Shown here piece by piece: positions 2,425 to 23,000 of a DNA stretch of 64,000 nucleotides; within the stretch, counting starts at the first letter, position 1, and the number at the start of each line of letters is the position of its first letter. This DNA comes from Poseidonia sp. (lineage in GTDB: Archaea > Thermoplasmatota > Poseidoniia > Poseidoniales > Poseidoniaceae). The position numbers and the translations under genes were made by a program. Under the pieces are notes generated by a model, which was not told where the DNA came from, did not search any database, and saw only the letters and a program-made list of their open reading frames with translations. The stretch lies in the NCBI GenBank assembly GCA_030827475.1, contig JAUREJ010000008.1, positions 95-64,094 on the forward strand. Reading direction: 5' to 3'.

Positions 2425-2544
2425 ACATCACAATCGGCGGGAAGCTTACTGCCCGCCCCTATATTCTATAGAACACTCAACACTACCAAGATTCCAACCC
2501 TGAGAAGGAAAAGGATTCTTGAACCGGAGGGAGTATGGTCCACC

Positions 2545-4668
2545 ATGGCGAAGGACGGCATCGTTGAGTCCTCCGCCAACGACAGTCACGAAGAACACAC
2601 CCGCTCAAAGGATCGAGAGGCCAAGGAACTTCAGGAAATACGGCAACGTCGCATGGGCGGAGGCCGAATCTTTCTCTCCAAAATTGAAGATTTTGTTTTG
2701 TTGGCAGGGCTAGCATACGGGGCCGTCTTTGCCCTGCTGTTGTTTTCGATGTCATCGGGAGCCTTGGGGGATTCGACAGCACTCGACCACACCGCTTCAA
2801 CCACCTTCCTTGACATCGGTGACGAATGCGAAGAAGTCACCGACGAGCCTTGGTTGAACATCTTCCCAGACCCCGACCGTGAATTGTTTTCCATCGCTGG
2901 CCACAACCTCCCCAACGGGGTGGCCTTCCTGAACTACACGTTCTACGAGGTGGTCAACGATCAAACCTTGTCCGTCGTCGACGAGCCTTACGGTGCGAAC
3001 GGCACAACCAGAACCATCAACAAAGCCGAACAAAACCAAGGACGAGCCTTCTTTTCAGCGCCCTACTCCGAACTTTCCGAGGGTCAGTTTGAACTCGTGT
3101 TTGAGCTCACCGTCAAGGCAGACAGATCACCGAACTCCTCAATCATCGTTGGACCGTTGACTTCAACGATCGTCTTTGAGCACACCATTTCGAAAGAAGC
3201 CCTTGCCTTCCTTCCGTTCGTTGACGACGCTGAACATTCCGACGTGCGGATTGAAGATTCCGGACCGCGTTCTTGCTGGTCCGTGCAAGACCTTGGCGAC
3301 TGGGGTTACCTGCTCATGGGTGCCGAAATTGGTGGCGGGCGAGAAACCGCCATGCTGACAGGTGGTGCTGCCGGCATTCCAGCATGGTGGATGGCGTTCG
3401 TTTCCCTCTCGCTTTCGATCATCTCTCTGCTCGTCATCTACCCCTTGATGTACAAGGTCTACCACCAAGACACCGACGACATCCTGTCCCGCGCCCACAT
3501 TCAACGTCTCGTTGAAGACACCGTCTACACCGTTGGCGAACAGTTGGGCATCGATATTGACGATGAACTCTTCAAGATCGAAATACGAGATTTGTCGATT
3601 GACATCATGGTGGCTTACCAAAACACGGAGAACACCCTCTCCGATTCCAAAGAAGTACGTGCTGAACTTCTACGAAACCTGCTCGAAGAATTCGCCATCT
3701 TCCGCGTCTTCAAACCCGTCCAACTCAACGTCCGGGTCATTGGGGCAGGTCATAGCATTGACTTTGATTCCGGCGTCGGCATTGGGACTCGGGTTGATGA
3801 GCAACAAGATGCCCTTAAGGAACGACAAGACTACTCGTCCTTCTTCTCTGAACTCCACTCCCTTTCACGTATTGAGGACGATGTTCGTGACAGTTTGGAC
3901 CTCTTCTTTACGCGCCGCACCGACGTCCAAATGAAGGGGGCGGTGGTGACCAGCGACGACCGGGTGGTCTTTGTCTCCGTCATTTACCGACCCACACAAC
4001 GCTTTGCTTTCTTCCGGTTCCGGAAGACCTCCACCCAGATGAAGGACGAATTGTTTCGTTTTATTCACGACCGGAACGAGGACTTGCTGGGCTCCCAAGA
4101 ACTCATCGTGAAGACGAGAAACGAAGTCTCAACCCTCGCAGATCGGGCTGGAGCCGGACGGGTCGAGCGCCAATCGCAAACCGACGATGAACGCATCGTC
4201 GCTGTGGCCCGACAAGACGGCTTGGGTGGGCGAATGCTGCAAACAAAATTCCTCGGCGACACGCTGTCCACCGTGGAATACATGGCGAACGAGAAGCGAG
4301 AGATGATCAACAAATGGGGATTTTGGGGCCTCATTTTCTTCGTGTGGATTCCCTTCATGGCCTCCGGTGTGCTTGTAGGCGCCATGCTCGGATTGCTCTC
4401 CAGAATGCAGTTCATGCGCGTCCTTATCGCTACGCTGATCGGTGGCTCCATCGCCTCGATCACGTGGGCGTACACCGCTGAAGGAATTGTGAAATTCATG
4501 CATCAGTACAAACTTGAGGTCTTCATCCCGTTGGTCATCATCGTCTTCATCCTGATGGCGGTGCTCCACATTCGGGCCACCAAGATGCGGCGTCAAACCG
4601 AGTTGTTTGAGGACACGCTCCTCGACAACTTCCACGCCGACATCGTCGCCAAATACGGGGACCAGTAG
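2545..4668 (+). CDS. multi-domain membrane protein with C-terminal COG2426-like (small multidrug export-like) 3-TM module
   Basis: The track ORF 2386..4668 runs through the tRNA, so the first plausible start is the ATG at 2545 (MAKDGIVE...). Predicted layout: TM, ~270-aa outside domain, TM, ~300-aa soluble domain, then a C-terminal TM bundle (WGFWGLIFFVWIPFMASGVLVGAMLG...). TTCTTGAAC box at 2516-2524. Confidence 0.6.
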   Translation: MAKDGIVESSANDSHEEHTRSKDREAKELQEIRQRRMGGGRIFLSKIEDFVLLAGLAYGAVFALLLFSMSSGALGDSTALDHTASTTFLDIGDECEEVTDEPWLNIFPDPDRELFSIAGHNLPNGVAFLNYTFYEVVNDQTLSVVDEPYGANGTTRTINKAEQNQGRAFFSAPYSELSEGQFELVFELTVKADRSPNSSIIVGPLTSTIVFEHTISKEALAFLPFVDDAEHSDVRIEDSGPRSCWSVQDLGDWGYLLMGAEIGGGRETAMLTGGAAGIPAWWMAFVSLSLSIISLLVIYPLMYKVYHQDTDDILSRAHIQRLVEDTVYTVGEQLGIDIDDELFKIEIRDLSIDIMVAYQNTENTLSDSKEVRAELLRNLLEEFAIFRVFKPVQLNVRVIGAGHSIDFDSGVGIGTRVDEQQDALKERQDYSSFFSELHSLSRIEDDVRDSLDLFFTRRTDVQMKGAVVTSDDRVVFVSVIYRPTQRFAFFRFRKTSTQMKDELFRFIHDRNEDLLGSQELIVKTRNEVSTLADRAGAGRVERQSQTDDERIVAVARQDGLGGRMLQTKFLGDTLSTVEYMANEKREMINKWGFWGLIFFVWIPFMASGVLVGAMLGLLSRMQFMRVLIATLIGGSIASITWAYTAEGIVKFMHQYKLEVFIPLVIIVFILMAVLHIRATKMRRQTELFEDTLLDNFHADIVAKYGDQ

Positions 4669-8344: not shown

Positions 8345-9493
8345 ATGGCCCTCCCTTTCCGCCGAAACGGCACTGAAGGGAACGAGGGTTCGGATGTTGA
8401 CAGCGATATCGAGGAAATCTTGGACCTCGCCGAAGGTCAACCCGAAGCGGTCCTTGCCGACCTTGAGCCGGCGAAGAATCCGGAGGGTGAAGACGAAGTG
8501 ATGGGGCACGATGACCGGATGGCAAAGAGTGCGCTCACGGTCATTGACACCTGCATGGACCTTCGTCGAGGCGAAAACATCCTCATCGTATGCGACCCCA
8601 CCACCACAGAAATCGGTCAGGCATTGCATGACGCCGCAAGCCTTCGCTCCGACCGCGTGTTGTTGATCGTCATGCCCAAAGGTCGACATCACGGGGACGA
8701 ACCGCCGTCCCCTGTAGCAAACTTGATGCGTCAACAACAGGTCGTCATCGCCCCCACAAAGTATTCCCTCACACACACCCGTGCTGTCCGTCAAGCCATC
8801 AAAGACGGTGCGCGCGTGGCCACCATGCCCGGCATGACCCTTGACATGTTCACCGAAGGTGGAATGGCAGCCGATTTCAACATCATCAAGAAAAACATCG
8901 GTGAAATGAACGGCTTACTCCGACGCAAACGCATCATCAACGTGAAGTCGAAAACGGGCACGAACGTCACCTTTGAAGTCAATTGGCGAGAGTGGAAACT
9001 GGATGACAACGGCGTATGCAACCGCCCGCGCATGCTCACCAATCTGCCTGCGGGCAAGATCTTCACGCTGCCGCGGGAAGGCACGATGAACGGGACCATC
9101 GTCATCGATGGTTCATGGGATTCGGCCCTGGTGGACGAACCCGTCATCCTGCAGGTCGAGAACGGCTTGGTCGTCGACGTCAAGGGCGGAACGGCTGCTG
9201 CCCAGATTCGGCAAACCTTTGGCGAGGCGGCCAAACGCTTGAAGAGCAAAGATCAGGAAAGCGTTTGGACGATCGCTGAATTTGGATTCGGGATGAACCC
9301 CAACGCTCGGCTCCTCGGCAACGTGCTCGAAGATGAAAAACGCCTTGGGACCGCCTACTTCTCGATTGGTGACAACACAACGCTCGGCGGGACGGCTGCG
9401 GTCGGCATCCAAATTTCGGGTGTGCTCGCCTCACCAAGCATCTGGCTGGACGAATCCCCGCTCCTCGAGAACGGTTCGTTTGTCGTCAACTGA
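8345..9493 (+). CDS. aminopeptidase, M29 (AmpS/aminopeptidase T) family
   Basis: Conserved core from MAKSALTVIDTCMDLRRGENILIVCD to EFGFGMNP...LEDEKRLGTAYFSIGDN. Start at 8345 was chosen from box spacing and coding-like GC3 of the acidic N-terminal 52 aa. Alternative starts are 8501 and 8519. Confidence 0.75.
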   Translation: MALPFRRNGTEGNEGSDVDSDIEEILDLAEGQPEAVLADLEPAKNPEGEDEVMGHDDRMAKSALTVIDTCMDLRRGENILIVCDPTTTEIGQALHDAASLRSDRVLLIVMPKGRHHGDEPPSPVANLMRQQQVVIAPTKYSLTHTRAVRQAIKDGARVATMPGMTLDMFTEGGMAADFNIIKKNIGEMNGLLRRKRIINVKSKTGTNVTFEVNWREWKLDDNGVCNRPRMLTNLPAGKIFTLPREGTMNGTIVIDGSWDSALVDEPVILQVENGLVVDVKGGTAAAQIRQTFGEAAKRLKSKDQESVWTIAEFGFGMNPNARLLGNVLEDEKRLGTAYFSIGDNTTLGGTAAVGIQISGVLASPSIWLDESPLLENGSFVVN

Positions 9494-9494
9494 A

Positions 9495-11009
9495 TCAATA
9501 ACCCAGATTTTGCTGGCCACATACCGGGCAAAACCGCCAGTACGGGTCGAGGCCAACACCGCATCCACGGCAATGAACGCCCGAATGAATGGTGGGTTGT
9601 ACCAAGGGGCGCTGAGGAGGTTGCTGCCACCCTTGTTGGGGAGGGGGTTGCTGCCATCCCTGCTGAGGTGGCGGCTGTTGCCACGCTTGTTGATTTGGTA
9701 CCGGTTGTTGGACGGGAGGTTGGTTCAACGGCGGTGGTCGTTGCTGAACCGGTTGTCCTGTGTTTTGTCCGGTGTTGCCCAACGGTCGACGAACCGGAGC
9801 CACCGGTTTGGGAAGCGAAGCCGTCTTTTCAGCGGCGGGGGAAGAGATGAATTCCGAAAGTGACACCACGCCGTCGCCATCGGTGTCCGCCTCGGCGTGC
9901 AAAGCCGCAGCTTCTTCGACGGTCGTGCCGGTGGCTCGGGCCAATTCTTCAACGTCCAAAGCCCCGCTACCATCTTCATCGGCAGCGATGAAATGTTCCG
10001 CAGCACTGACGAATTCCTCCTCATCGCCTTGCGCACCAACCTCTTCTTCCACGGGTTCAACCGAGATGTCTGGCACCTCCGGTTCAGCAGGTTGAGAATC
10101 CGGAAGAAGTTGCGAACCAAAGGCTCCGGAAAACGCATCTTGTGCTGCCCGAGCCACCTCCCGTTCGTTTTCCACGTTCACGGGAGTTTCGGCCTTCACC
10201 GGTACCTCAACCTTCGGCAGGGCCACCGTTGAGGAAGGAAGCGGCACGGGTGATTCGGGTTGAACCACCGGTGCAGAGGGTTCGGCGCCCGGAAGCGGAA
10301 CACCTTTGGGGGCGGAAGGGACAGAAGGTTCGGGAATTGGAGGAGTGGGTGCAGCCTGGACTTCAGCAGGTTCAGGGGCTTTCGGTCGTTCAAGACCTTC
10401 GGGGATTTCCACGGTCGCAGCTGAAGCGGAACCGCTGGCCAGAGAAGCGATGGGAGCGACATGTCCGGCGACGTCGAGCGCAGCGTCGAGTTCTTTGTTG
10501 ACCGTGACAAGAGCGTCCACCGACCCGCCGACATTGGCAAGCATGCCGTCAAGCGTGTTGAGGTACTTCAGCACTTCAGCGCCACCTCCTGTTTGGTGCG
10601 CCACGGCGAACAATTTCATCATCCGCATGGGGTCTGCAAGACCTTCCAACTGGGATTTTTGCTCACCGTCGAGGGAACCGATGGTCTCACCACCAGCGGC
10701 ACCGCTGGAATCGGGCATGCCGAGGCTTTGCAGGAGCGGGTCGGGCAGGCTCATCAAGCCGAGGTGACCTGCAACGAGGTAGTAGATCTCCCCGCCTTCG
10801 CACTGCATGCGTTCGCTGGCTGCTTCAAAATCAAAATCACCGGGTCGTAAAACGATGTCTGAAAGCACATCAAAAAACTGCACCATGGCTTGGTCTCGAG
10901 GCATCGCCATCATGGCATGAAGCACGTCAGAGGATTCCGTGACACCGAAATAGGCCGCGGCTTCATCCACCTCGATGGCGGTGGGATTTCCAGTGGCTCC
11001 ATCGCTCAT
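9495..11009 (-). CDS. cytosolic EF-hand pair / Pro-Gln-Trp repeat / C-terminal zinc-ribbon protein
   Basis: 504 aa with no signal peptide. Two canonical EF-hand loops, DEDGSGALDVEE and DTDGDGVVSLSE (nt 9846-10004). C-terminal CRGCG...CPVCG (nt 9519-9572). SD GGAGG lies 7 nt upstream of the ATG at 11009, 58 nt downstream of the giant adhesin gene. Confidence 0.75.
   Translation of the reverse strand: MSDGATGNPTAIEVDEAAAYFGVTESSDVLHAMMAMPRDQAMVQFFDVLSDIVLRPGDFDFEAASERMQCEGGEIYYLVAGHLGLMSLPDPLLQSLGMPDSSGAAGGETIGSLDGEQKSQLEGLADPMRMMKLFAVAHQTGGGAEVLKYLNTLDGMLANVGGSVDALVTVNKELDAALDVAGHVAPIASLASGSASAATVEIPEGLERPKAPEPAEVQAAPTPPIPEPSVPSAPKGVPLPGAEPSAPVVQPESPVPLPSSTVALPKVEVPVKAETPVNVENEREVARAAQDAFSGAFGSQLLPDSQPAEPEVPDISVEPVEEEVGAQGDEEEFVSAAEHFIAADEDGSGALDVEELARATGTTVEEAAALHAEADTDGDGVVSLSEFISSPAAEKTASLPKPVAPVRRPLGNTGQNTGQPVQQRPPPLNQPPVQQPVPNQQAWQQPPPQQGWQQPPPQQGWQQPPQRPLVQPTIHSGVHCRGCGVGLDPYWRFCPVCGQQNLGY
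9612..9692 (-). repeat. imperfect 27-nt tandem repeat x3 encoding (W)QQPPPQQG
   Basis: Protein reads QAWQQPPPQQGWQQPPPQQGWQQPPQ. The DNA shows three similar units (ggttgctgccacccttgttgggg...). Confidence 0.7.
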
Positions 11010-11067
11010 GGTTTATCCTCCCTCTTCCGTCCAAACCTGACCTTCATTTAAGACCTCATGACCGATG

Positions 11068-14000
11068 TCAAGCCGCCTTGTTTTTCGCAAGGTTGCAAAT
11101 CGCTCGAGACTGCTCCGCAGTCCACCCTGTTTCTTGAAGTTGCATCAGCACGCTGCGCTCTTGGTCACCGTCTGCAATTGCACCCATCACCCATTCCACG
11201 GCGGATTCTCGGTCAGCACGTTGCCAGTCCTCAAAGATGCTCAAATCAACCTGAATCTTCGCCTTTCGAACCTTCGCTGAGGAGGCCTCAACGACCGAAT
11301 TCACCGACTTTTTCTTCGCCACTTTTTGCACGGGCTCTGGTTTTGCCGACGACTCCTGATCCGGGCCGCTTTGAGGGGGGCCGCCTCCGCCACGCTTTGG
11401 CGGGCCTGCATTGGCTTTGGGAGGGCCACCCGGGCCGGCTCGTGAAGGAGAAGGACGGCTGTTGGCAGGTCCGCGGGGCTCGCCAGAGTTTGACGATGGT
11501 GCAGGGCGTGAACGAGCGGGAGCGGCCCGTTTTGCATCCAACTTATCGAGGAAACTCTCCTCATTGTCGTCGTCAAAGAATTCATCGTAGGCATCATCAT
11601 CTTCGTCATCGTCCTCACGGCCTGAGCGCAACACTACGAGAAGACCCAACAAGATGACGAGCCCGACCGCTCCACCGGCGACCATCAGCATGCCAGCATC
11701 CAATCCAAACAATCCAGCATCACCATCGCCGGAGACCGCTACGTAGGGGCAACCGTCGTCGTACCCGTCAACGCCTTTCGGATCGTTAGGGCAGTTGTCC
11801 TCATTGTCCTTGACACCGTCATAATCCGAGTCCCGTTCGGAGGGATGACACCCGTCCCCGTCCAGTTGGCCCAACAGGCCCGAAAGCGTGGTTGGGCAGA
11901 GGTCAGCGTTGGTGGCACCTTCGATAAATTCGCCGGGCCAGCTTGGGTCACGGTGTGGGGTCCACGATGCGTCACCCCAGTTGTCACCCAAGCCATCGAA
12001 ATCAGAATCTTTCCATTGCGTGGGGTTGTTTTGGAGGGTTTCCGGTTCCAAGAAGTCGGCCCAACCGTCGCCGTCATCGTAACAACCAGGGACGTCCATG
12101 AACGACGTACCTGCTTCGGCCGAGCAGAAGTCAGCGTTCTGAGCGCCTTGAATAAACACACCCGGCCATGAAGGGTCGCGAGAATTGTTCCACGACACCG
12201 TGCCCCAATTGTCCCCAAGACCATCTCCATCGGAGTCAAACCATTGGGTGGGGTCAGACGGGAAGGCATCGCCGGTTTGGTTGACATGAAGCCCCGTGAT
12301 GGGGTCAATGTCGTAACTGTATGCACCAGCAAAACCGTCGCCATCGATGTCCTCGGTCAATGCACTCTCGTCGGTGCAGCCATTTTCAAGAATCGGGAAG
12401 CCGGGTGGCGTGTCGTCACAGGCATCGTCAAGGTCCGACAACCCGTCTCCGTCGCTGTCGCGTTGGGCCTGTGAACAACCGAATTCGTCAACGCTTTCGC
12501 CCACCTCCGTGTTGGGACAACGGTCCTCGGGGTCGTTCAAGCCGTCCCCGTCCGAGTCTGAAGTTCGTTGCTCAGCGCTGCAACCATCTCCGTCGACCGT
12601 CACGCCCGTCGGCGTCTCGGAACAGAGGTCATCATTGTTCTTGACGCCGTCTTCGTCGTCGTCCAACTCGGATTGAGCGCATCCGTCCTCGTTGACCACC
12701 TCACCAGCCGGACTGTTGGGGCAGATGATATCGAGATCGTTGATCAGGCCGTCCCCGTCGTTGTCTTGAAGGTCAATGACGCGGCAACCCACACCGTTCG
12801 TTCCGTTGAAAACGCCGAATTCAAACGGACATTCATCCGCGTTTTCGCCCAGAGGGTTATCGCCAAACCCGTCCCCGTCCGTGTCAGAGGTCTGCGTTTT
12901 GTCAAGAGGGAAGGCGTCACCAATCTGATTTTCTCGCAGACCGCTGGTTTGGTTTGTCTCGTAGGCGTATTGGTCGGTGAAGCCATCGCCGTCCGAATCA
13001 AGACATCCGTAGACCGGCACCGTGGAATTGCCCCAAACTTCTGGGCACTGGTCCAATTCAAGACCTTCTTTGTACGAGGTTTTGGGGAACGTGAGGTTGG
13101 CTGCTTGGTCCTCGTCGCACCCGTTTGGACCAATCGGAAGCGAGGGGTCGGATTCAACGCACATGTCGTTGAGGTTGATGACTCCGTCGTTGTCGTCGTC
13201 CATCGTGGCAAAGGCCGTCCAATTGTCGGCATAGCCATCGCCATCCGTGTCGTTTGCCGCCACGATGCGCAGTGGGAAACGGTCGGGGAGCGTGGCGTTC
13301 TCGGATTGGTTATCACCGAAGCCGTCACCGTCGGTGTCGGTCCATTGCGTCGGGTCAAAAGGCCAAACATCAGCGCCAAGTTCGATGTTCCATTCAAAGA
13401 ACGTCCCCTCGTCTGAAGGGTCACTTGCGCCATCCCCGTCGGAGTCCAGACAACCGTTTCGGTCTCGCCACGAAGCGCCCCAGTCCCAAGGGCAGAAGTC
13501 GCCGTACACCGTATCGGTGTCGTTATCGCCAAAGCCATCCCCGTCGTAATCAGCGTATTGCGAAGCGATGTAAGGGAACAAATCTCCGGGACCGGCGTTC
13601 GGGTCCAACTCAACGGAACAACAGTCCACGCCGTGATTGTCACCAAACCCGTCACCATCGGTGTCGAGCGCTTGTTTCCAGTTACCTTTGTAGACATCGC
13701 CGTCAAAGTATGTGGCCCCGTTGTCTGACCAACCGTCCTGGTCAAGGTCCTCACAACCGTACCGGTCGATCCATGAGGTCCCTCCGGAGGAATCGCAACC
13801 GTCGATGTCATCGGAGAAGCCGTCCATGTCGAAATCCGCGCACCCGTAAACGACGTACGAGGAGGGACCGGCCGCCGAAGGGCACTGGTCGGCAAGCGGT
13901 CCCAGAGGGTTGTCACCGAAACCGTCCCCGTCGCCGTCAGACCATTGGTTTCCAACCGCAGGCATCTCGTCAACCAAGTCAAAAACAAGATCCCGGTCTT

Positions 14001-17000
14001 GGTCGGCGTAAAGTCGAAGAAGAACTGCATCGTTGTTGACTTCGTCCCAATACGCAAGGTGAACGGTCCCGTTGCTGTCAACGACCGCATCCACCGGGTG
14101 GTTGGTCACGATGTCCCCGAAGCGGACGGACATCCAGGGCGCATAACCAGCGTGAACGCCGTCGAGTTCAGCGGTGTTCACCACAAGGTGATTGGATACG
14201 GGGTCGCTGGTCAACAAGAGAAGATGGTCGCCCATGTGGAGAACATCCCAAGCCCCGTCCACCGCAGCAGCCGGTCGTTCGGTCAACGTGACCCAATCAC
14301 CGGTGCTGTTGGGAGCGAGGAGGGAGGAGACGGCGTTTGCCCGAACGGCCAAAAGCGGTTGGTCACCGCCCTCGAGGTCGAGACGGTATTCGTTGGCGGT
14401 GCCGCTGGGTTGCAGCACGGTGTGCGATTGCCAAACGGTGTCGCCTGGCCATTGCTCGTAAAGGGCGAGGGCCCCCGTTGTGCTGAGGGAAGCGAGAAGG
14501 AGAGATCCGTTGGCAAGCGTGGTGAGCCCAAGTTGGGTCCCGTGGTCGGACATGTTGCCGATGGTTTGTTTGATCAGCGTCGTGCCGTTATGCATCCAAA
14601 CCGCAAGGTTGGTGCCGGTGCCGTTGGAAGCGACCAAGGCCACGGCGAGCGTGTCGTTGGCGAGCATAACAGCAGGGTGTTGGGTGGACACCGCTTCCGC
14701 GACGGAGCCCAAGGAGGTCAGCGTCCAACTGCCTCCTCCGGTCGCCCGTTCGAGTTGTCCCGTCGAGGCATGTCGATAGACGAGGTGCGGCACATCGTTG
14801 CTGTCAAACAAGACTTCGATTCCGTTGGCGAGTTGGGCTCCCGTTCGGACCAGGTCGGTGACCCAGCCTGATGCCGTTTGCTCGCTGGCGTAGATTTGTT
14901 GACCTGAACCTGATGTGTAAGCAAGAACTTGTTCGTTGCCCTGATTCACGTTTGAGCCGATGTATTGGCCCATGGTTCCCGTCGTAGCCACGGCTTGTTC
15001 AACCGCCGTCATGGAGCGAGTGGTGTGGAGATGGATGGCATCGTCATCTTCGGTGAGGAGCAGAGGGAGGCCCGAGGATTGAACGTCAAAGCGGATGGAA
15101 AGGTTGCTTGTGGTTGATCGAACCACGGTTTGGTCCACCCATTGGCCTGCGGGTGAACCGTCCATCATGTGTTCCAATTTCGCAGCGTAGGAACGCTGAG
15201 TGTCGTTGAAGGTATAGGCGATGCTCGTTTCTCCGCGGTCTGCCGTCGCCAACTCCAACGCATTGAGTTGTCCTGCATGCTCAAAGGAAATCGATTCCCA
15301 ATCGCGTTCCGACACCACCACGTAATCGAGAGCAAAGGCGCTGCCTCGGTCATCGGTGCGTTGCGAATAGACGAGGTCGCCCAACCCGTCGCCGTTGAGG
15401 TCCCCGCCGGCCGCTAGACGGAAGCCCAGTTGCTCGCTGGAATTTCCTTCTGCAAGCAATTGTTTGTCGGAACGCAAACCGTCGGCCGAACCAAGGAAGA
15501 TTTCGATGCGGCCGGCGTTTGAACCAAGCCGGCTGGTGATGTACACATCGTCGTAACCGTCGTCGTTGATGTCGCCGGCAGCTGCGATCGCTTCACCGAT
15601 TTTCGAGTTCGCCAACGTCGGGAAGTACTGCCAGTCCGCCTCGCTCGGGAAGGCAGAAGATGTTCCATCAAACAACCACAGCACCCCCGTACCGAAGACG
15701 CCGTCGGTGTTGTTGAACGGCTCCGTGATGATGTGTTCGTCGAAGCCGTCCCCGTTGAGGTCCCCCGCACAGACGATACCGTGGCCGAACAAACGACCCT
15801 GGACCAGGGATGAAATGACATGGTCGGGCGTCCCTTGGTATCCAGCGACATCGCCGTAAAAATATTCAATGGAGGAGTAAGAGAGCGGAGATGCATACGA
15901 ACCGGTGTTTGCGACGATGAGTTCAGCAAGGCCGTCCCCGTTCAAATCGCAGCCTTCGAGCGTTCGACCAAACATCGAACCGTCGCCGGTCTGGGTGAGG
16001 TTTCGCACCAACGTAAGCCCAGTTTCGCCACCGTCGTACACGTTGACTTTCCCGGTGTGGGTGACCGATGTACTGACCTCGAGAGCGTAGCCGTGAGCAG
16101 CGCCGGCAAGCCCGTCGGCGGCAGAGTCCTGATGCAAGGTGGTGACGGTGGAACCCAAGGATTCGTTACCGGACCCGTTGATCGTCCATGAAGGTGCGGA
16201 GGGTAGACCTGCTGGCGAGCCCAAATGCACCGTGAGGCGGCCGTCATTTTGGTTGGTAGAACCGCTGAGGTCCCATCCAGGCGCCCCGATGAGAAGGTCC
16301 TCTACACCGTCGTTGTTGTAGTCACCCACGTCAACGCCTTGCCCATAGTGCTCTCCATCCCCGCTTCCCGCAAGAATGGTGCTCGGCACGGCCTCCAATC
16401 CTGCCGAGGAACCGTAGTACACTTCGACACGACCGTTATCGGTGAACCCCACCATGTCTGCGGTGGGGGTGCTGATGAGGAGGTCATCAAACCCGTCGCC
16501 GTTGAAATCGGCCATGGCGATGCTGCCTTCCGCTTCGTCTGCCGTACCTTCACGATGGTCGGTGGGAACGGGGTCGACACGCCCAGTGTCTTGACCGGCA
16601 AGCGAACGAATGAGGTTGATCGAGAAGGTGGAGCCGATTTGGGTGGCTGTAGCGATTTGCTCAATGGCATTTGCGTCGAGATCCATCCCCAGGGCGTCGA
16701 CGAGGGCTGCGTTTCGGTCGAGGATGCTCACGTCGTGCTCACCGTCAGCAATGCGGAGCAAGACCACTTCGTTTGCGGTTGACCGGCTGTAGAGGATGTG
16801 AGCGGTGCCGTTGGCGTCCAACGCCAACTCAAAGTCTTCACCGACAGGACCGGCATCGAGCAGGAAGGTGGTCCAGTAAGCGCCGCTGAAGTTGACCTGA
16901 TGAAGCGCACCGTCCGCAGTCCGCACCAAGCCCCATTCAACCCCGTTTGGCGTGATTTCGAGCTCAATGTGCGTTGGCGAAATGTCTTCAAGAATCGTCC

Positions 17001-17574
17001 GAGTATGCCATGTTGGCCCTTCCCAGTACACTTGGCTCGTCCTTGCAAAACGGCCCACCTTGAGGTCGTCCCCGTCGGCGTAGAGGACACGCGGGAGTTC
17101 GTTGGCCGTAACGGCGATAGCACAATCCACAAGAGCGGAGGTGTTGGCGGAAGCGACGGTGTCGACAAGCGTCGTGCTCCAAAACCCGTTGGGGCGATGA
17201 ATCGCCGTCCGGACCGCTCCCTGCTCGGTCGACCAGCAGTAATGTTCCTTGTCCGTGCGCGTCAGTTTCATGTCGGGTGTCCCGTGATGTTCCGTGCTCG
17301 AGTTGTTCAGCTCCGTTGAAATCCAGTAGTCAAACATGGATTCCTCCCGAACAACAGCATTGTCCAAACCGTCAACGCTGATGGCCGTTCCTGCAAATTC
17401 ATGACTTGAGCCCTCGGTCAACGAGAACGCAGCGTTAAGACGAACGTCCGGATGGGGGGCAAGTTCCTCCATCGTTGCCGCAGGAGGGGCCAGAGGTGTT
17501 GCGAGAGAGCAGAGGAACAGAAGGACGAGAAGGACGCTTTTTGGATCTGAATTTTGATTCGTGGCGTCCGACAT
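11068..17574 (-). CDS. giant type-I surface protein (FG-GAP beta-propeller + thrombospondin type-3 Ca-binding repeats + C-terminal TM + 186-aa cytoplasmic tail)
   Basis: Continuous 2179-codon ORF. Signal-like segment KSVLLVLLFLCSLATPLAPPAA, seven FG-GAP repeats, >15 DxDxDGxxDxxD repeats, TM AGMLMVAGGAVGLVILLGLLVVL followed by RSGREDDDEDDD. Start ATG 17574 is preferred because an AT-rich box lies ~30 nt upstream. ATG 17607 is an alternative. Confidence 0.85.
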   Translation of the reverse strand: MSDATNQNSDPKSVLLVLLFLCSLATPLAPPAATMEELAPHPDVRLNAAFSLTEGSSHEFAGTAISVDGLDNAVVREESMFDYWISTELNNSSTEHHGTPDMKLTRTDKEHYCWSTEQGAVRTAIHRPNGFWSTTLVDTVASANTSALVDCAIAVTANELPRVLYADGDDLKVGRFARTSQVYWEGPTWHTRTILEDISPTHIELEITPNGVEWGLVRTADGALHQVNFSGAYWTTFLLDAGPVGEDFELALDANGTAHILYSRSTANEVVLLRIADGEHDVSILDRNAALVDALGMDLDANAIEQIATATQIGSTFSINLIRSLAGQDTGRVDPVPTDHREGTADEAEGSIAMADFNGDGFDDLLISTPTADMVGFTDNGRVEVYYGSSAGLEAVPSTILAGSGDGEHYGQGVDVGDYNNDGVEDLLIGAPGWDLSGSTNQNDGRLTVHLGSPAGLPSAPSWTINGSGNESLGSTVTTLHQDSAADGLAGAAHGYALEVSTSVTHTGKVNVYDGGETGLTLVRNLTQTGDGSMFGRTLEGCDLNGDGLAELIVANTGSYASPLSYSSIEYFYGDVAGYQGTPDHVISSLVQGRLFGHGIVCAGDLNGDGFDEHIITEPFNNTDGVFGTGVLWLFDGTSSAFPSEADWQYFPTLANSKIGEAIAAAGDINDDGYDDVYITSRLGSNAGRIEIFLGSADGLRSDKQLLAEGNSSEQLGFRLAAGGDLNGDGLGDLVYSQRTDDRGSAFALDYVVVSERDWESISFEHAGQLNALELATADRGETSIAYTFNDTQRSYAAKLEHMMDGSPAGQWVDQTVVRSTTSNLSIRFDVQSSGLPLLLTEDDDAIHLHTTRSMTAVEQAVATTGTMGQYIGSNVNQGNEQVLAYTSGSGQQIYASEQTASGWVTDLVRTGAQLANGIEVLFDSNDVPHLVYRHASTGQLERATGGGSWTLTSLGSVAEAVSTQHPAVMLANDTLAVALVASNGTGTNLAVWMHNGTTLIKQTIGNMSDHGTQLGLTTLANGSLLLASLSTTGALALYEQWPGDTVWQSHTVLQPSGTANEYRLDLEGGDQPLLAVRANAVSSLLAPNSTGDWVTLTERPAAAVDGAWDVLHMGDHLLLLTSDPVSNHLVVNTAELDGVHAGYAPWMSVRFGDIVTNHPVDAVVDSNGTVHLAYWDEVNNDAVLLRLYADQDRDLVFDLVDEMPAVGNQWSDGDGDGFGDNPLGPLADQCPSAAGPSSYVVYGCADFDMDGFSDDIDGCDSSGGTSWIDRYGCEDLDQDGWSDNGATYFDGDVYKGNWKQALDTDGDGFGDNHGVDCCSVELDPNAGPGDLFPYIASQYADYDGDGFGDNDTDTVYGDFCPWDWGASWRDRNGCLDSDGDGASDPSDEGTFFEWNIELGADVWPFDPTQWTDTDGDGFGDNQSENATLPDRFPLRIVAANDTDGDGYADNWTAFATMDDDNDGVINLNDMCVESDPSLPIGPNGCDEDQAANLTFPKTSYKEGLELDQCPEVWGNSTVPVYGCLDSDGDGFTDQYAYETNQTSGLRENQIGDAFPLDKTQTSDTDGDGFGDNPLGENADECPFEFGVFNGTNGVGCRVIDLQDNDGDGLINDLDIICPNSPAGEVVNEDGCAQSELDDDEDGVKNNDDLCSETPTGVTVDGDGCSAEQRTSDSDGDGLNDPEDRCPNTEVGESVDEFGCSQAQRDSDGDGLSDLDDACDDTPPGFPILENGCTDESALTEDIDGDGFAGAYSYDIDPITGLHVNQTGDAFPSDPTQWFDSDGDGLGDNWGTVSWNNSRDPSWPGVFIQGAQNADFCSAEAGTSFMDVPGCYDDGDGWADFLEPETLQNNPTQWKDSDFDGLGDNWGDASWTPHRDPSWPGEFIEGATNADLCPTTLSGLLGQLDGDGCHPSERDSDYDGVKDNEDNCPNDPKGVDGYDDGCPYVAVSGDGDAGLFGLDAGMLMVAGGAVGLVILLGLLVVLRSGREDDDEDDDAYDEFFDDDNEESFLDKLDAKRAAPARSRPAPSSNSGEPRGPANSRPSPSRAGPGGPPKANAGPPKRGGGGPPQSGPDQESSAKPEPVQKVAKKKSVNSVVEASSAKVRKAKIQVDLSIFEDWQRADRESAVEWVMGAIADGDQERSVLMQLQETGWTAEQSRAICNLAKNKAA
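11728..13950 (-). repeat. thrombospondin type-3-like calcium-binding repeat region (protein-level repeats)
   Basis: Approx. aa 1220-1960 of the ORF. Repeated DSDGDGLNDPEDRCP, DNDGDGLINDLDIICP, DTDGDGFGDN, often paired with Cys. Confidence 0.75.
15298..16545 (-). repeat. seven FG-GAP/integrin-alpha-like repeats (protein-level)
   Basis: Approx. aa 355-770 of the ORF. ADFNGDGFDDLLIS, GDYNNDGVEDLLIGAPG, CDLNGDGLAELIVA, GDLNGDGFDEHIIT, GDINDDGYDDVYIT, GDLNGDGLGDLVYS. Confidence 0.7.
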
Positions 17575-17622
17575 GTCCCCTTCACATCCTCCGTCCTTGA
17601 AAATCATTGTTCACCGCGGCCT

Positions 17623-18336: not shown

Positions 18337-19184
18337 GGAAGAAAAGAGCGGAGCATGGCGGAATAATCGCTTTGTCCGTCCCACTCCTGCGCCCTTTCGT
18401 CGATGCGGGCCGCTTCAAGCGTCTGCTCAAATCCACCCCAATCTTCGATCAATTTCAGCCTGTAGGCCGCTTTTGGGGTGTACCCGGGAAGGAAATTTCG
18501 CCAAATGAAAGGAATGCGTCCCGGCGTGACTTGATTCACGATTCGAACGATGGAAGTGTTGCACGTCGTCAACAAGGAGTGGTACCACTCTGGTGATTGA
18601 GCGAGTTGATTCAGTTTTCCAATCAACCCCAGCAACAAAGCCTTGTCCTTCCCTGGCGGCGTGATGGCTCGAAACATGTAATCCTTGTTTTTCCGACCAT
18701 GAGTTCGCAGTCCTGTTACGTCGCGTTCAAAGCCCACGAGCAGGTAGAGTTCGTAAGCTCGCCACATGCCGTCCCAAGGGTGGTATCGCTCGCCTTTTTC
18801 TCGTCGTGTCTCGAACGAGAAGGAGAGGCTCGTGCCGTCCTCAAAATCAAACGTCAAATAGGTGTGCGCCAAACCTTTGAGGGCGTGAAAATGGTCGACG
18901 ACGAACCAGATATCCTTGAGTTCATCCAACTTGACCTTGACCTCAGGCGCCCAATTCTCGTCGCGGTCACGGGTGGTGCGCCAGGTGAAATCACGCACCA
19001 TGTGAAAGGTGATGTCGTTGCCGTCGACGGTAGCGGTGGTCAAGTGCTCGCAATCAGCAGCCCACTCAAGGTCAAGCGATGGCTGCAACGGACGGATTCG
19101 AGTTCGCCAAACATAGAGGAGCCGTAAGCCGATTACTCCCCCAAAAAAGGCCACTGCGAGGCCGATTATTTCCAGCGGCGTCAT
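18321..19184 (-). CDS. membrane-anchored DUF4105-like protein
   Basis: 287 aa from ATG 19184, which forms an ATGA overlap with the stop of the upstream gene. N-terminal TM LEIIGLAVAFFGGVIGLRLLYVW followed by RTRIR. The body resembles DUF4105 (..VVDHFHALKGLAHTYLTFDF...RAYELYLLVG..). Confidence 0.65.
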   Translation of the reverse strand: MTPLEIIGLAVAFFGGVIGLRLLYVWRTRIRPLQPSLDLEWAADCEHLTTATVDGNDITFHMVRDFTWRTTRDRDENWAPEVKVKLDELKDIWFVVDHFHALKGLAHTYLTFDFEDGTSLSFSFETRREKGERYHPWDGMWRAYELYLLVGFERDVTGLRTHGRKNKDYMFRAITPPGKDKALLLGLIGKLNQLAQSPEWYHSLLTTCNTSIVRIVNQVTPGRIPFIWRNFLPGYTPKAAYRLKLIEDWGGFEQTLEAARIDERAQEWDGQSDYSAMLRSFLPQSSK

Positions 19185-20485
19185 TGTTCCCACCCGTGCC
19201 AAATCTGCCAGTCCGCATCCCACCAATCCAGTTTTCCATCCGGGTGCTGGCGCCACATGACGCCCTGGTCGTCGGTGATGACAGGAAGGCCCATCGGGTC
19301 AGGACGGCCGTCCGCAAGCACCTGAGGAGCAGGACCGAGATGGGGTATATCGAGGGGTTCGACACGACGCTTCCCCGTGAAAGCAAGGAAGACGAAAACC
19401 GTGACGACGAGCGCCAGAAGGCCGATGGAGAGCCAACCCACGGATTCAGTAGGCGTGTTCTCACCAAGCGAGGTGGAGGGGGCGGTCGCCGTCTCGTCCT
19501 CACCTGCGTTTGGATTTGGAAGTCGAATCAGATTCACGCCCGCCGTTGAGGAGATCATCTTCTCGTTCATCACCTCGAGGCTGATAAGGTACGCCCCGGC
19601 CGGAAGTTCAGAGCAATCCAAAGACGAGGTGTTTGCGCCTTCGACCAGCTTTCCTTTGATTCGCCAGTTCTTGGTCCACATCGCCGAAGCTGACGCATCT
19701 TCGGTGACCATCTTCACCTTGCACGGCAAGTTCGTGGTGTTCTCATGGCCGAGCAAGGTTAACGTGAATTGAGGGGCAGGGCGGTTTGTGATGGTGAAGT
19801 TGAGGTTGGCTTCGGTCGTCTGACCCAATCCGTTCCGGTAAGTTTCACGCAATGCGTATGTGCCGGCTGGCCAAGATGAACAATCCAGCGTACCGTGGGC
19901 ATCCAGCACGCTGAAGGGCGCTCCTGAAAAGGTCCGAACGCCCGTCTCTCCGTACCTTGGCCCGGTCTCATCGGAGAAAACGCGTGTGACCTGACAGGCT
20001 TCTCCTGTCTGAATCGATGGCCCTGCCTCAAGATTGAGTTGGACCATCGGCACTTGAAGTGCTGGCGTCAAAACAAAGGTTGGAAGTGGGTTGGACGCGA
20101 TGAATTCCCCGTCATCGTCAAAGAAATCCAGCCGCAAACGGTGCTCGCCCTTGGACCAAGCATCGTAGACCAGAGAAAGGTTTGTTTGACCGGAAAAAGA
20201 AATTTCGGCCACCTCGAGCACCTCACGCTCCTTGTGAAGGCCCCGTAGTTTGACGATGAGGTCGTTCTGGGCTGAGGTTGAATTGAGCACAACCACCACC
20301 CGAACGGCATCGATATCACCGTCCTGGTCGGTGTCAATGGTGTCGTTGCGCAGCGCCAACACGGTCAATCCCTGCTCCGCAAGGCGTTCTTCGGTGGTCA
20401 GTTCAGCGGCAACCACCGTCAAGGGGCTCAGCAGGGTGAGCATGAACACCACGGCGGCGCCCCATGCCAGGGTCTTCTCACGCAT
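19181..20485 (-). CDS. type-I surface protein with Ig/PKD-like domains and Trp-rich WW-like cytoplasmic tail
   Basis: 434 aa from ATG 20485, with SD GGAGGTG at 20498-20492 and 6-nt spacing. The track start 20494 is GTG. Signal peptide MREKTLAWGAAVVFMLTLLSPLTVVAAE, TM WLSIGLLALVVTVFVFLAFTG then KRR, tail ...GVMWRQHPDGKLDWWDADWQIWHGWEQ. Overlaps the upstream gene by 8 nt. Confidence 0.75.
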   Translation of the reverse strand: MREKTLAWGAAVVFMLTLLSPLTVVAAELTTEERLAEQGLTVLALRNDTIDTDQDGDIDAVRVVVVLNSTSAQNDLIVKLRGLHKEREVLEVAEISFSGQTNLSLVYDAWSKGEHRLRLDFFDDDGEFIASNPLPTFVLTPALQVPMVQLNLEAGPSIQTGEACQVTRVFSDETGPRYGETGVRTFSGAPFSVLDAHGTLDCSSWPAGTYALRETYRNGLGQTTEANLNFTITNRPAPQFTLTLLGHENTTNLPCKVKMVTEDASASAMWTKNWRIKGKLVEGANTSSLDCSELPAGAYLISLEVMNEKMISSTAGVNLIRLPNPNAGEDETATAPSTSLGENTPTESVGWLSIGLLALVVTVFVFLAFTGKRRVEPLDIPHLGPAPQVLADGRPDPMGLPVITDDQGVMWRQHPDGKLDWWDADWQIWHGWEQ

Positions 20486-23000
20486 CGCCTTCACCTCCGG
20501 GTGGTGTCAAGAGCGGTAGAGGAGGCAACGCATCGATGGGAATCAATTGAGGTACGGGCTGAGAGATCTCTGGCGACATCATCAATTCAAGGTCTTTGGC
20601 CGCCACGATTTGCTCCAAATACGCCGCCCGTTGCCGTGCGCCTCGCACGAGAAGAGCGCCAAGTGCGCCGAGCAAGAAACCGGTGCCGATAACGGCGTAG
20701 GTGAGCCAGGACGCTGCCGGGTCCTCGCCCATGATGGCGATAGCGGCGGCGAACTCACCGTACTGATTTGACCAGCCGTCGCCGTTGTCGTCGGGACACC
20801 CTTGAACGTCCCGTTTTGAGGTGCCCGCTTCGTTGGGGCAATCGTCGCGGAACGCCCCGAGCGGTAAGTCACCAAAGCCGTCTTGGTCGGAATCCTTCCA
20901 CTGCAGGGCTTCGGTTGGAAACGCATCTGCACTTCCAAAGGGGTGGGCTGGCCAGGAGGGGGTGGGGTCGGACCAGCCGTCGCCGTCCGTATCTCGGCAT
21001 CCAAGCCGGTCGAGCAGGGATGTCCCTCGGGTCTCCGGGCAGGCATCTCCTTGGTGACCCGTTTGCCGGTCGCCGTAACCGTCACCGTCGGAATCCCGCC
21101 ATTGAGTCGGCTCGTGAATGAAGGCATCTCCGAGGTCGGACCAACCATCGCCGTCCGTGTCCTTGCAGCCCCATCGGTCGCCACCTGAGGACGGACCAAC
21201 AGAGGTTCCGGCGACCTCTGGACAAACGTCTGCGGTCGTACCTCTCGGGTTGTCGCCTCGACCGTCACCGTCAGCGTCGTGCCATTGTGTAGGGTCTTGA
21301 GGCCAAGCATCACCTGAACCGCCCGGACTTGCCAGCCACGCTGCGGTCGGGTCCGACCATCCATCGCCATCGCCATCAGGGCATCCCCACCGGTCAAAGG
21401 TCGAATTTCCAAAGGTGGTGCGACAACCGTCGGGACGGGAAGAGGCCCGCCAGGTTTGCCCGTCGAAGTATTCCGTGTTGTCGCCGAAGCCATCGTCATC
21501 CGTATCGTGCCATTGCGAGGCGTCCTCAGGGAAGGCATCGGCAAAACCAGCCGGATGCGATGCCCACAAGGCGGTCGGGTCGGAGTAACCGTCGCTGTCG
21601 ATGTCGCGGCATCCCAACCGGTCAAAACGGCTGATCCACCCTGAATCGACTTCTTCAGGCGTGGATTCGGGGCACACATCGCCTTCAAAACCCGTCAAAT
21701 TGTCCCCGTAACCGTCCCCATCGGAATCTCTGAATTGCGAGGGAACAAAGGGGAAATCATCGATTTGGGTCGCACCGTAGGTCTGGTTGTCCCCCCAGCC
21801 GTCCCGATCCGTATCACGCCACTGCGTCGGATTAAAGGGAAAGTCATCGATGCGTTGTGCTCCCTGGGTTTGGTTATCACCCCAGCCGTCGCGGTCGCTG
21901 TCCAGCCACTGTGTAGGTTCGAGTGGAAAAGCATCCGAGCCGTTGTCTTGGGTCCAGTTTTCATCGCCGTCGGAATACGCATCGCCGTCGGAGTCAGGAC
22001 AGCCGAAACGGTCAGCAAAGGAACCCCCTCGAACGAACGGACATGCGTCCGGTTCAGTAGCGTTGTCGACGAAAATGCCGATGTCCCAAAGGTACCTCGT
22101 GATGTTCAGCGAGGCATCAGCCCAATTGTCCCCGTAACCGTCCTCATCGGTGTCGTTCCATTGGGTCACGTCGCTGGCAAAGGCGTCAGCCTTGCCCACG
22201 GGGTGGGCGTACCATGGGATGAATCCGTTCAAGCCTCCGGGGTCTGGGTCGGAATATCCGTCACCGTCCGAATCGATGCACCCAAAGCGGTCGGCCAACG
22301 AATAGCCTCGGCTGTAGGTGCAATGGTCGCCTTGGAAGCCATCGATGTTATCGCCGTAGCCGTCGTTGTCGGAATCCAACCATTGGGTGGCTTCGTTGGC
22401 AAAGGCATCTGCACCGTTCTGCACCCCCCATCCGCTGTCAGGGTCCGACCAGCCGTCACCGTCGTTATCGGTGCAGCCTTTTCGGTCGTTTGTGGAGGTG
22501 CCCACGAGGTTGACGCAGTCGTCCTCGGTGTCGATGAACCCGTCTTCGTCGGTGTCGCGGTTGGTCTTGTCGATGCTTGGCGTGAGCGTGTAATCAAAAC
22601 CGTCGTTGCACCAAGAGTCCCCGCCTTCCACCTTGAGCAAAATTTCCCCAGCGGTTGCAAGAGTCGTTGAAAGAGATGCTGTCGGATTGGTATCGTCAAC
22701 GTTGGATGTGATGGAGCCCATGGTGAAGGTCCCGATCCATCCATCGCCCGGGCACCACCAAGCAGCGTTGTTCATGCTCCCGGAGAACGAAACACGAACG
22801 ATGTCGCCTTTCTTCCCCTGAATTTTCCAATAGTCGGTTTTGTCGGTGGGTGAACAACCGTCGGGGTCACAGACGTACCCGCTGGAGGAGACGCCGTCGG
22901 TCAGCCCGTTCGCACTGGTTGGAGAATTGTCAGCAGCCACCGTGGGGAGGTGACTGAAAAAAAGCGCCGCAAGGAAAGCCACCAAGACGGTGCGACGCAT
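20478..23000 (-). CDS. secreted PPC-domain + TSP3-like Ca-binding repeat protein with C-terminal TM anchor
   Basis: 840 aa. Signal MRRTVLVAFLAALFFSHLPTVAA. N-terminal PPC-like domain (DKTDYWKIQGKKGDIVRVSFSG...LKVEGG...YTLT). About 12 units of D.DGDG(W/Y)SDP...ADAFP.(D/E).TQW.D.D.DG.GDN. TM TYAVIGTGFLLGALGALLV. Confidence 0.8.
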   Translation of the reverse strand: MRRTVLVAFLAALFFSHLPTVAADNSPTSANGLTDGVSSSGYVCDPDGCSPTDKTDYWKIQGKKGDIVRVSFSGSMNNAAWWCPGDGWIGTFTMGSITSNVDDTNPTASLSTTLATAGEILLKVEGGDSWCNDGFDYTLTPSIDKTNRDTDEDGFIDTEDDCVNLVGTSTNDRKGCTDNDGDGWSDPDSGWGVQNGADAFANEATQWLDSDNDGYGDNIDGFQGDHCTYSRGYSLADRFGCIDSDGDGYSDPDPGGLNGFIPWYAHPVGKADAFASDVTQWNDTDEDGYGDNWADASLNITRYLWDIGIFVDNATEPDACPFVRGGSFADRFGCPDSDGDAYSDGDENWTQDNGSDAFPLEPTQWLDSDRDGWGDNQTQGAQRIDDFPFNPTQWRDTDRDGWGDNQTYGATQIDDFPFVPSQFRDSDGDGYGDNLTGFEGDVCPESTPEEVDSGWISRFDRLGCRDIDSDGYSDPTALWASHPAGFADAFPEDASQWHDTDDDGFGDNTEYFDGQTWRASSRPDGCRTTFGNSTFDRWGCPDGDGDGWSDPTAAWLASPGGSGDAWPQDPTQWHDADGDGRGDNPRGTTADVCPEVAGTSVGPSSGGDRWGCKDTDGDGWSDLGDAFIHEPTQWRDSDGDGYGDRQTGHQGDACPETRGTSLLDRLGCRDTDGDGWSDPTPSWPAHPFGSADAFPTEALQWKDSDQDGFGDLPLGAFRDDCPNEAGTSKRDVQGCPDDNGDGWSNQYGEFAAAIAIMGEDPAASWLTYAVIGTGFLLGALGALLVRGARQRAAYLEQIVAAKDLELMMSPEISQPVPQLIPIDALPPLPLLTPPGGEGDA

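Follow-up and report, generated by a model that had tools for sequence, protein, structure and literature searches.

A 64,000-nucleotide (nt) stretch of Poseidonia sp. DNA (contig JAUREJ010000008.1 of assembly GCA_030827475.1; this whole stretch is called the window below) encodes a giant single-pass surface protein and, directly downstream on the same strand, a 504-amino-acid (aa) soluble protein that we call the partner. The two constitute a lineage-restricted, conserved and almost certainly functionally linked module, which was seen here only in Poseidoniales, and the conserved adjacency of their genes suggests that they work together across the membrane. A first-pass annotation of the window, made from the letters alone, had read them as a co-transcribed adhesin and calcium-sensor-like protein and had proposed that their synteny be sought across Poseidoniales genomes. 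The synteny was found.

RESULTS

Conservation of the gene pair

We compared 201 Poseidoniales genomes from across the order by using two profiles, one of the N-terminal domain of the partner (the N-domain) and one of the domain that ends the cytoplasmic tail of the giant (the tail end domain). Each profile matches 122 of the 201 genomes, and 119 genomes have both. For 120 of 123 N-domain matches, a tail match on the same strand of the same contig is the immediate upstream neighbor, with 69 to 260 nt (median, 103.5) between the ends of the two matches. The pair is present in 95 of the 99 sampled Poseidoniaceae, while in Thalassarchaeaceae the N-domain (24/99) and the tail domain (26/99) are restricted to certain genera. 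The genera listed with genomes of 1.3 to 1.6 Mb are without the partner and, apart from g6 (2/4), also without the tail end domain. Genera that are without one are mostly without both, the exceptions being g6, with the tail end domain only, and g2 and g19, with the partner only. In the other family, the tail end domain and the N-domain are 33 to 40% identical to the window copies, and the tail linker has strongly diverged. A first set of 41 relatives gave the same picture, with the partner in 30 genomes, the tail in 32 and the N-terminus of the giant in 31, and with the tail just upstream of the partner wherever both share a contig.

One genome (G196; contigs C2 and C7, locus L037) carries two giant-partner pairs, each followed by an M29-like gene where that side could be seen. 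At 3% contamination, the second pair may be a true duplication or the product of a mixed bin.

Architecture of the giant surface protein

The first-pass description of a single-pass surface protein of about 2170 aa agrees with the gene. The N-terminal match is interrupted by stop codons among its first residues in relatives, and in the window a GGAGG stands ahead of the second ATG (Met12); the true start is for these reasons probably Met12, at 17572-17574, which would leave the first 11 codons (window 17572-17607) untranslated and give a product of 2168 aa. Hydropathy gives a hydrophobic N-terminus and one transmembrane helix. The parts of the giant are as follows, with positions in the window and with model confidence as the predicted local distance difference test (pLDDT).

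11068..17607, minus strand: gene of the giant single-pass surface protein, an open reading frame (ORF) of 2179 aa
17470..17544, minus strand: N-terminal hydrophobic segment, signal-peptide-like (residues 22-46; hydropathy 2.07)
16558..17469, minus strand: N-terminal ectodomain region of no family (residues 47-350; conserved in 31 of 41 relatives)
15328..16545, minus strand: integrin-type FG-GAP beta-propeller (residues ~355-760; by Pfam FG-GAP, PDB matches and loop spacing)
13978..15327, minus strand: middle ectodomain region of no family (residues 761-1210; no significant Pfam match)
11728..13965, minus strand: thrombospondin type 3 (TSP3)-like calcium-binding repeat region (residues ~1215-1960; by its DxDxDG motifs and cysteines)
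11629..11691, minus strand: transmembrane helix (residues 1973-1993, within a hydrophobic segment at 1966-1998; hydropathy 2.75)
11266..11628, minus strand: disordered part of the cytoplasmic tail, in which a run of acidic and aromatic residues is followed by a basic linker rich in Pro, Gly and Ser and by KVAKKK...KVRKAKI (mean pLDDT per 10-residue block, 44-60)
11071..11265, minus strand: tail end domain, a predicted three-helix bundle (giant residues ~2115-2179; AlphaFold2 pLDDT 84-97)

Pfam FG-GAP (PF01839) matches five stretches of the giant at an E value of 9.4e-20 (70.5 bits, against a cut-off of 22.1), and PF13517 matches at 42.6 bits (cut-off, 26.9). The propellers of integrins alpha-5, alpha-IIb and alpha-V in PDB match residues 362-568 and 605-748 with E values of 4e-9 to 2e-5, those of alpha-5 and alpha-IIb lying between 4e-9 and 1e-7. 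Six Dx[DN]xDG blade loops are found at residues 367, 429, 554, 616, 679 and 736, spaced about 57 to 63 aa apart, and the double gap between the loops at 429 and 554 implies a putative seventh blade. The integrin-like propeller of the first-pass annotation is supported in kind by both databases, with six blade loops located and its seventh repeat putative. The two further propeller-like regions that it listed did not fare as well: residues 1-350 and 740-1210 match no Pfam family at E≤1, and the one lead toward a propeller comes from a language model, in which the Atlas clusters nearest to residues 47-350 are BNR_4 (score, 0.95, with the family on 24% of members), which is a lead only. The Atlas neighbors of residues 760-1210, at 0.87, are weak leads, none of them usable.

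Nearer the membrane, 19 DxDxDG motifs, all within residues 1224-1926, are accompanied by cysteines at regular spacing. This bears out the more than 15 TSP3 repeats first annotated as far as the motif goes, but the Pfam TSP_3 profile (PF02412) scores 20.8 bits, under its cut-off of 25, and the region is therefore TSP3-like by motif and not by curated profile. NCBIfam gave only sub-threshold repeat or EF-hand matches. In the giant, where the PDB matches are confined to propeller residues, Pfam detected neither a leg domain nor a beta-subunit domain of integrins, and no integrin family among 15 ORFs scanned at window positions 1-30347.

The cytoplasmic tail

The tail was first described as 186 aa long, with an acidic run, a linker and a helical end domain; it measures 185 aa, and its parts are as described. 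An alignment of 19 tails separates four parts: a juxtamembrane acidic and aromatic run (DDxDDDDYDDFFDDD...LDxLD), a variable basic linker rich in Pro, Gly and Ser (GPPK/GGPP), a basic stretch (KVAKKK...KVRKAKI) and a strongly conserved end (…ERxxLxQLQxxGWxxxQSRxI…), where F, R, L, Q, G, W, Q, S, I and A are among the positions that never vary. AlphaFold2 predicts that the first ~120 residues are disordered and that the last ~60 form a three-helix bundle, with a pLDDT of about 95.

Profile searches with this domain and with the N-domain, which the first-pass annotation had proposed, recovered homologues in Poseidoniales, and Pfam gave no family for either domain at E≤1. Foldseek gave no clear fold match for the tail end domain (best E value, 0.89). 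In structural alignment it resembles the spidroin C-terminal domain (Z, 6.2; root-mean-square deviation [rmsd], 2.3; 58 residues aligned) and the Pex14 N-terminal domain (Z, 5.2; rmsd, 1.9; 47 residues aligned), both within the range that the tool states to be noise for helical models. A UBA-like fold was considered and found to be unsupported, with no UBA entry among the matches listed. A search with the tail domain for longer proteins returned at least 80 matches, mostly fragments of giants, of up to 2000 aa.

The partner protein

The partner carries the two EF-hands, the WQQPPPQQG repeat and the CxxC...CxxC ribbon that were first annotated, and hydropathy finds neither a signal peptide nor a transmembrane segment in it. 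Its elements are arranged as follows.

9495..11009, minus strand: gene of the 504-aa cytosolic partner, an ORF with no hydrophobic segment
10944..10976, minus strand: N-terminal peptide IEVDEAAAYFG (residues 12-22; 8 of 11 positions invariant in the alignment)
10410..10928, minus strand: helical N-domain (residues 28-200; AlphaFold2 pLDDT 84.7, predicted template modeling score 0.79)
10116..10139, minus strand: short motif DAFSGAFG in the disordered linker, also present in the distant homologues P0145 and P0187
9834..10022, minus strand: EF-hand pair, a lineage-restricted insert (loops at residues 344-355 and 375-386; by Pfam and a calmodulin match)
9777..9815, minus strand: proline motif LPKPVAPVRRPLG, PxxPxR-like (P400, A404, P405, R407 and P409 invariant), also present in P0145 and P0187
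9600..9752, minus strand: Gln/Pro/Trp-rich repeat region, including two WQQPPPQQG units at residues 443-460
9498..9578, minus strand: C-terminal zinc ribbon CxxC...CxxC (residues 480-497; C480, C483, C494 and C497, all four invariant)

Among 3858 candidates scored, 462 are homologues of the partner at E≤0.001. The public ones carry the labels Candidatus Poseidonia or Poseidoniaceae, the named sources are Poseidoniales, Thermoplasmatota or "Euryarchaeota," and the source labels shown read "hypothetical protein," "EF-hand domain-containing protein" and, once, "septum formation inhibitor MinC." Against 1.84 billion representative proteins, the N-domain profile matches 112 clusters at E≤0.001, and in nearly all of these matches, some of which are fragments, the domain stands at or near the N-terminus. 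Two apparent gene fusions (P0199 and P0195) were set aside; by eye they appear to be out-of-frame readings of the giant's tail and resemble gene-calling errors.

AlphaFold2 predicts nine helices for the N-domain, and there was no clear match to its fold, either with Foldseek against PDB (best E value, 0.42) or in the wide VIA search (best Z, 4.4). The peptide that precedes it has the family form IEVDxAAAYFG; residues 1-24 have pLDDT values below 50, and the peptide is predicted to be disordered when alone, as expected for a docking motif.

The EF-hands are well supported in the window. PF13499 (EF-hand_7) scores 31.2 bits against a cut-off of 30, calmodulin lobes match at an E value of 1e-7, and the two loops, DEDGSGALDVEE and DTDGDGVVSLSE, are predicted calcium sites by sequence (12 residues, with Asp at positions 1 and 3, Asp or Ser at 5, Gly at 6 and Glu at 12). 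They are also present in the tested homologues from the genus Poseidonia, in one genome of Thalassarchaeaceae and in one second-copy homologue (L037) that belongs to a different genus of Poseidoniaceae. None were found in the homologues of G028, G033, G027 and G208 or in P0145 and P0187, and in the homologue of G025, from a third Poseidoniales family (L025:2-1213; the gene is truncated by the contig end), two Rho_N/SAP/HeH motifs (E values, 2e-15 to 2e-8) replace them. The EF-hands behind the calcium-sensor-like character first attributed to the partner were thus found in only some lineages of its family.

The zinc ribbon is distributed differently, being kept in 28 loci with the other two families included. 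Its profiles, PF13240 and DZR (PF12773), score 16.3 and 17.1 bits on the window protein, under their cut-offs of 25 and 27.3, and 20 to 21 bits on partner homologues. As judged from the alignments, the conserved core of the partner is the helical N-domain, the short proline motifs and the zinc ribbon, and the EF-hands are not the conserved part.

The intergenic region

The gap between the genes is 58 nt long and the partner has a good Shine-Dalgarno sequence, both as first annotated. The annotation had also reported no promoter box, and this proved to be wrong.

11045..11060, minus strand: conserved intergenic box CATGAGGTCTTAAATG, a candidate promoter of the partner resembling a B recognition element and TATA box (from the genus alignment)
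11017..11021, minus strand: Shine-Dalgarno sequence GGAGG of the partner, 8 nt ahead of its ATG

The box has the form CATGAGG(G/T)CTTAAATG within otherwise variable gap sequence. Of the 19 loci compared within the genus, 17 have CTTAAATG and two have GCATAAATG, and other Poseidoniaceae genera have a different, similarly placed box (…ATCCTCAAGAAC…). The exact string GSCTTAAATG does not occur in the window because the window copy has T at the S position. The looser form [GT]CTTAA[ACT] is rare in the genome that includes the window copy (G000), with 167 sites on both strands, compared with 81 to 1421 sites for four control motifs of similar composition, three of which are commoner (261-1421). Where [GT]CTTAA[ACT] precedes an ORF of at least 100 aa, 38 of 72 sites lie 30 to 47 nt from the start, a concentration that none of the four controls has. 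TCTTAA is the most enriched hexamer 25 to 60 nt upstream of starts led by a Shine-Dalgarno sequence (11 observed against 0.5 expected, 20-fold), and few starts are preceded by a canonical AT-rich TATA hexamer, with 8 TTAAAT and 2 TTTAAA in 788 upstream regions. As an observation in its own right, [GT]CTTAA[ACT] is a candidate TATA-like promoter element across this Poseidonia genome.

The claim of co-transcription is weakened by this box. No oligo-T run is present in the gap, and two of four RNA-library runs include a contig that spans it (record 10 of X3, at 9300-11133, and record 20 of X7, at 10948-11282). All four runs consist of contigs, which hold no transcript starts, ends or strand and may contain DNA; the bridging contigs therefore cannot prove a single transcript, and the parts of the stretch left uncovered in runs X1 and X2 carry no meaning. 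Both read-through from the giant and independent initiation of the partner are possible.

Neighboring genes

The pair sits in a conserved gene order that runs from a TSP3-type membrane protein through a membrane protein with a WW-like tail, a Lnb_N protein in some cases, TPK, the giant and the partner to an M29-like peptidase. The last of these adjoins the partner in all three families; in the window, its gene (8345-9493, plus strand) is convergent with that of the partner and ends one base from the partner stop (9495, minus strand). The membrane protein with the WW-like tail is 437 aa long (window 19181-20494, minus strand), and its cytoplasmic tail ends in W-x6-DG-K-x-D-W-W-D-x6-W, which by eye we take to resemble a WW domain; no match to the Pfam WW profile was found at E≤1. 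The adjacent TSP3-type membrane protein, of 840 aa (window 20478-23000, minus strand), carries PPLPLLTPP in its tail. Together, the WW-like tail, the PPLPLLTPP tail and the proline motifs of the partner look like a putative set of proline motifs and their readers at the inner membrane face.

Those Thalassarchaeaceae genera that have the partner (g3, g4, g9, g11, g21 and g22) also have the WW-tail protein, which occurs in f2 and g19 too and in none of 71 genomes of g5, g6, g7, g8, g10, g23 and g24. Within Thalassarchaeaceae its genus pattern is that of the pair, leaving aside g6, which has the tail end domain only. With the same query it was not found in g15 (6/6), g18 (1/1) or 7 of 31 sampled g1 genomes besides the one that holds the window, all of which carry the pair. 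A link of the pair to the archaellum was also considered and rejected: within Thalassarchaeaceae, the distribution of archaellin (PF01917) does not follow that of the pair, since g3, g4 and g21 have the pair and no archaellin and g10 (13/14) and g24 (4/4) have archaellin and no pair.

Farther out, the neighbors in the window are archaeal and include an exosome RNase PH subunit, a TrmB-type regulator and tRNA-Phe. The tRNA-Phe gene (2349-2424) overlaps the listed start of a 760-aa ORF (2386-4668), which must therefore start further downstream.

DISCUSSION

The conservation of the giant and its partner as neighbors points to a shared role across the membrane, and the explanation that we prefer overall, tentatively and with less than even confidence, is a module made of a surface giant and a soluble scaffold close to the membrane. 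The giant would be a probably glycosylated, calcium-stabilized surface protein, with its propeller followed by TSP3-like repeats, held in the membrane by one helix and ending in a mostly disordered tail with a small three-helix domain. The partner would be a soluble scaffold composed of the N-peptide, the helical domain, a disordered linker with DAFSGAFG, LPKPVAPVRRPLG and WQQPPPQQG, and the zinc ribbon. It would lie at the inner face of the membrane beside the tails of the giant and possibly of neighboring surface proteins, and its short motifs may link these tails to other cytoplasmic partners. Where EF-hands exist, calcium could modulate the scaffold as a lineage-specific switch. The domain make-up, the topology read from hydropathy and the adjacency of the genes are the observations on which this model is built; the physical contact between the proteins, the response to calcium and the direction of any signal belong to the model itself. 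Direct binding of the tail to the partner is plausible without being probable.

Several observations weigh against this reading. Neither the N-domain nor the tail end domain has a fold match to a known adaptor by Foldseek and structural alignment. The partner probably has a promoter of its own, predicted to be TATA-like and followed by a short leader that bears the Shine-Dalgarno sequence. In addition, each member of the pair occurs without the other. Neither a giant nor a tail domain was detected in 3 of the 122 genomes with the partner, namely, G025 and G027 of the third family and G208 of a Poseidoniaceae genus, where the partner adjoins the TPK gene with no giant between, and the first 760 residues of the giant gave no match in five genomes searched, those with orphan partners included. 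The aligned orphans of G025 and G027 keep the N-peptide residues and the zinc ribbon, and in G208 the AAYFG core and the ribbon were seen by eye in the ORF. Conversely, three genomes (G099, G106 and G118) have the tail domain and no partner, the match in G099 being cut by the contig end. The other two belong to g6, a small-genome Thalassarchaeaceae genus, in which the tail end domain terminates a 1458-aa membrane subtilase (Peptidase_S8 plus CARDB; G118, L033:624-5000) and a small TSP3 protein (G106, L035:44-979); no partner-like gene was found after either gene, and both orphan domains keep the invariant residues. Because it is found on a subtilase and a small TSP3 protein without the partner, the tail end domain is, to judge from these genes, a portable cytoplasmic module of several surface proteins, and the role of the partner is by the same kind of evidence one that can outlast the giant. 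It follows from the orphans that the pair is not obligate and, since they keep the conserved residues, that the conserved surfaces cannot serve only the pairing of giant and partner. Together with the likely separate promoter, they make an exclusive pair the less favored form of the model. Finally, the genus pattern that the WW-tail protein shares with the pair means that part of the co-occurrence may reflect the loss of the whole surface-protein region in small genomes.

In the alternative that survives best, the partner is a general scaffold of local surface proteins whose proline motifs (LPKPVAPVRRPLG and QQPPPQQGW) are read by the WW-like tail of the 437-aa neighbor and perhaps by others, the giant being one client or none. 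In the three genomes where the giant was not found, the partner still adjoins the TPK and WW-tail genes (L024, L025 and L036), the WW-tail protein and the partner occur in the same Thalassarchaeaceae genera, and the proline motif does not vary within the partner family. The likeness of the 437-aa tail to a WW domain, judged by eye, points the same way. However, the genomes of g15, g18 and g1 noted above have the pair and no detectable WW-tail protein, and Pfam finds no WW domain in the 437-aa protein, whose reading of the motifs by binding is putative. We consider this alternative unlikely, although it retains real weight.

A second alternative is that the genes are neighbors through inherited gene order and have no function in common, with two lineage-specific genes lying between TPK and the M29-like gene and lost together as genomes shrink. 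Conservation of the whole order from TPK to M29, the likely promoter of the partner and the few genomes in which each gene is found without the other are all in keeping with it. Yet the 120 adjacent pairs in 123 span two families despite the divergence of their N-domains and an unconserved intergenic sequence, the same strand and short gaps are kept throughout, and the duplicated copy in G196 keeps the pair together, all of which make mere inheritance improbable. Least probable of all is that the partner is a nucleic-acid-binding regulator of surface-protein genes, adjacent for regulation or for tethering to the membrane: the zinc ribbon is conserved in all families, N-domain residues 35-85 align with the three-helix DNA-binding domains of Fis, NtrC and sigma region 4 (Z, ~4.0-4.2; rmsd, 2.2-3.0; 45-50 residues), and the G025 homologue has its Rho_N, SAP and HeH motifs, but those Z values fall within the stated noise range for helical models, SAP/HeH is seen in that one homologue only, neither Pfam nor NCBIfam finds a helix-turn-helix family in the partner, and the protein consists mostly of a disordered linker rich in Pro and Gln, an unusual make-up among archaeal transcription factors.

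The module of giant and scaffold invites comparison with integrins, which are alpha/beta heterodimers with thigh and calf leg domains and short, GFFKR-type tails of about 20 to 60 aa, bound by talin, kindlin and, for alpha-IIb, the EF-hand protein CIB1. The giant resembles an integrin alpha subunit in its FG-GAP propeller with Dx[DN]xDG loops (seven blades if the inferred one is counted), its type I single-pass topology and its cytoplasmic tail, and the soluble EF-hand protein encoded beside it recalls CIB1 and alpha-IIb. It differs in that no beta subunit, thigh or calf domain was detected with it and in that its tail, at 185 aa, has a folded end domain and a different make-up. Neither CIB1 nor talin is related to the conserved core of the partner. 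EF-hands were not found in many partner homologues and are dispensable in many lineages, which disfavors binding through an EF-hand of the CIB1 type. We nevertheless suggest, as a doubtful but specific possibility, an integrin-like transmembrane coupling that Poseidoniales would have of their own. The tail end domain would capture the N-peptide or N-domain of the partner, whose proline and aromatic motifs would bring in other tails, the WW-like one for example, along with cytoplasmic factors, and calcium that enters or is sensed upon attachment would switch the assembly through the EF-hands, the whole amounting to a prokaryotic "adhesome" of eukaryotic-type short-motif interactions.

Elements of the giant have precedents. 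"Thrombospondin" genes are widespread in Poseidoniales and have been linked to adhesion (Rinke et al. 2019, PMC6461757); the giant has the same kind of repeat, and the account of these genes in that paper does not mention the tail domain, the partner or the synteny. Bacterial proteins with integrin-type propellers (PMC3192720) and Dx[DN]xDG calcium-binding proteins (PMC3123361) provide prokaryotic seven-bladed propellers and the same calcium motif, and the relevant parts of these papers concern the domains themselves, with no mention of a dedicated cytoplasmic partner. Calcium-binding family modules specific to two Poseidoniales families have been reported in general terms (Meheust et al. 2022, PMC9258230), in a statement that does not describe the giant-partner pair. 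The first-pass remark that such an arrangement was uncharacterized in archaea therefore needs qualification for the giant, whose domain types had already been noted in the order, and seems to hold for the pairing and the partner family. Apart from the supplements of PMC6461757 and PMC9258230, which were outside our scope and might list such families, we met no account in the literature of the tail domain, of the partner family or of how the two genes pair. The conserved giant-partner pairing appears to be undescribed, and so do the tail end domain and the N-domain of the partner.

Among the planktonic archaea of surface oceans, Poseidoniales are described as the most abundant, and no member has been grown in culture (PMC6461757). 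Their attachment to particles and algae has so far been inferred from gene lists only. If the proposed module is real, a surface protein with a folded tail and a cytosolic scaffold would give a concrete handle on attachment and transmembrane signaling in archaea. Should the two proteins bind, they would represent an independently evolved archaeal counterpart of integrin tail adaptors; should they not, the module would still supply two new domains, along with several conserved short motifs, for expression and assay in vitro.

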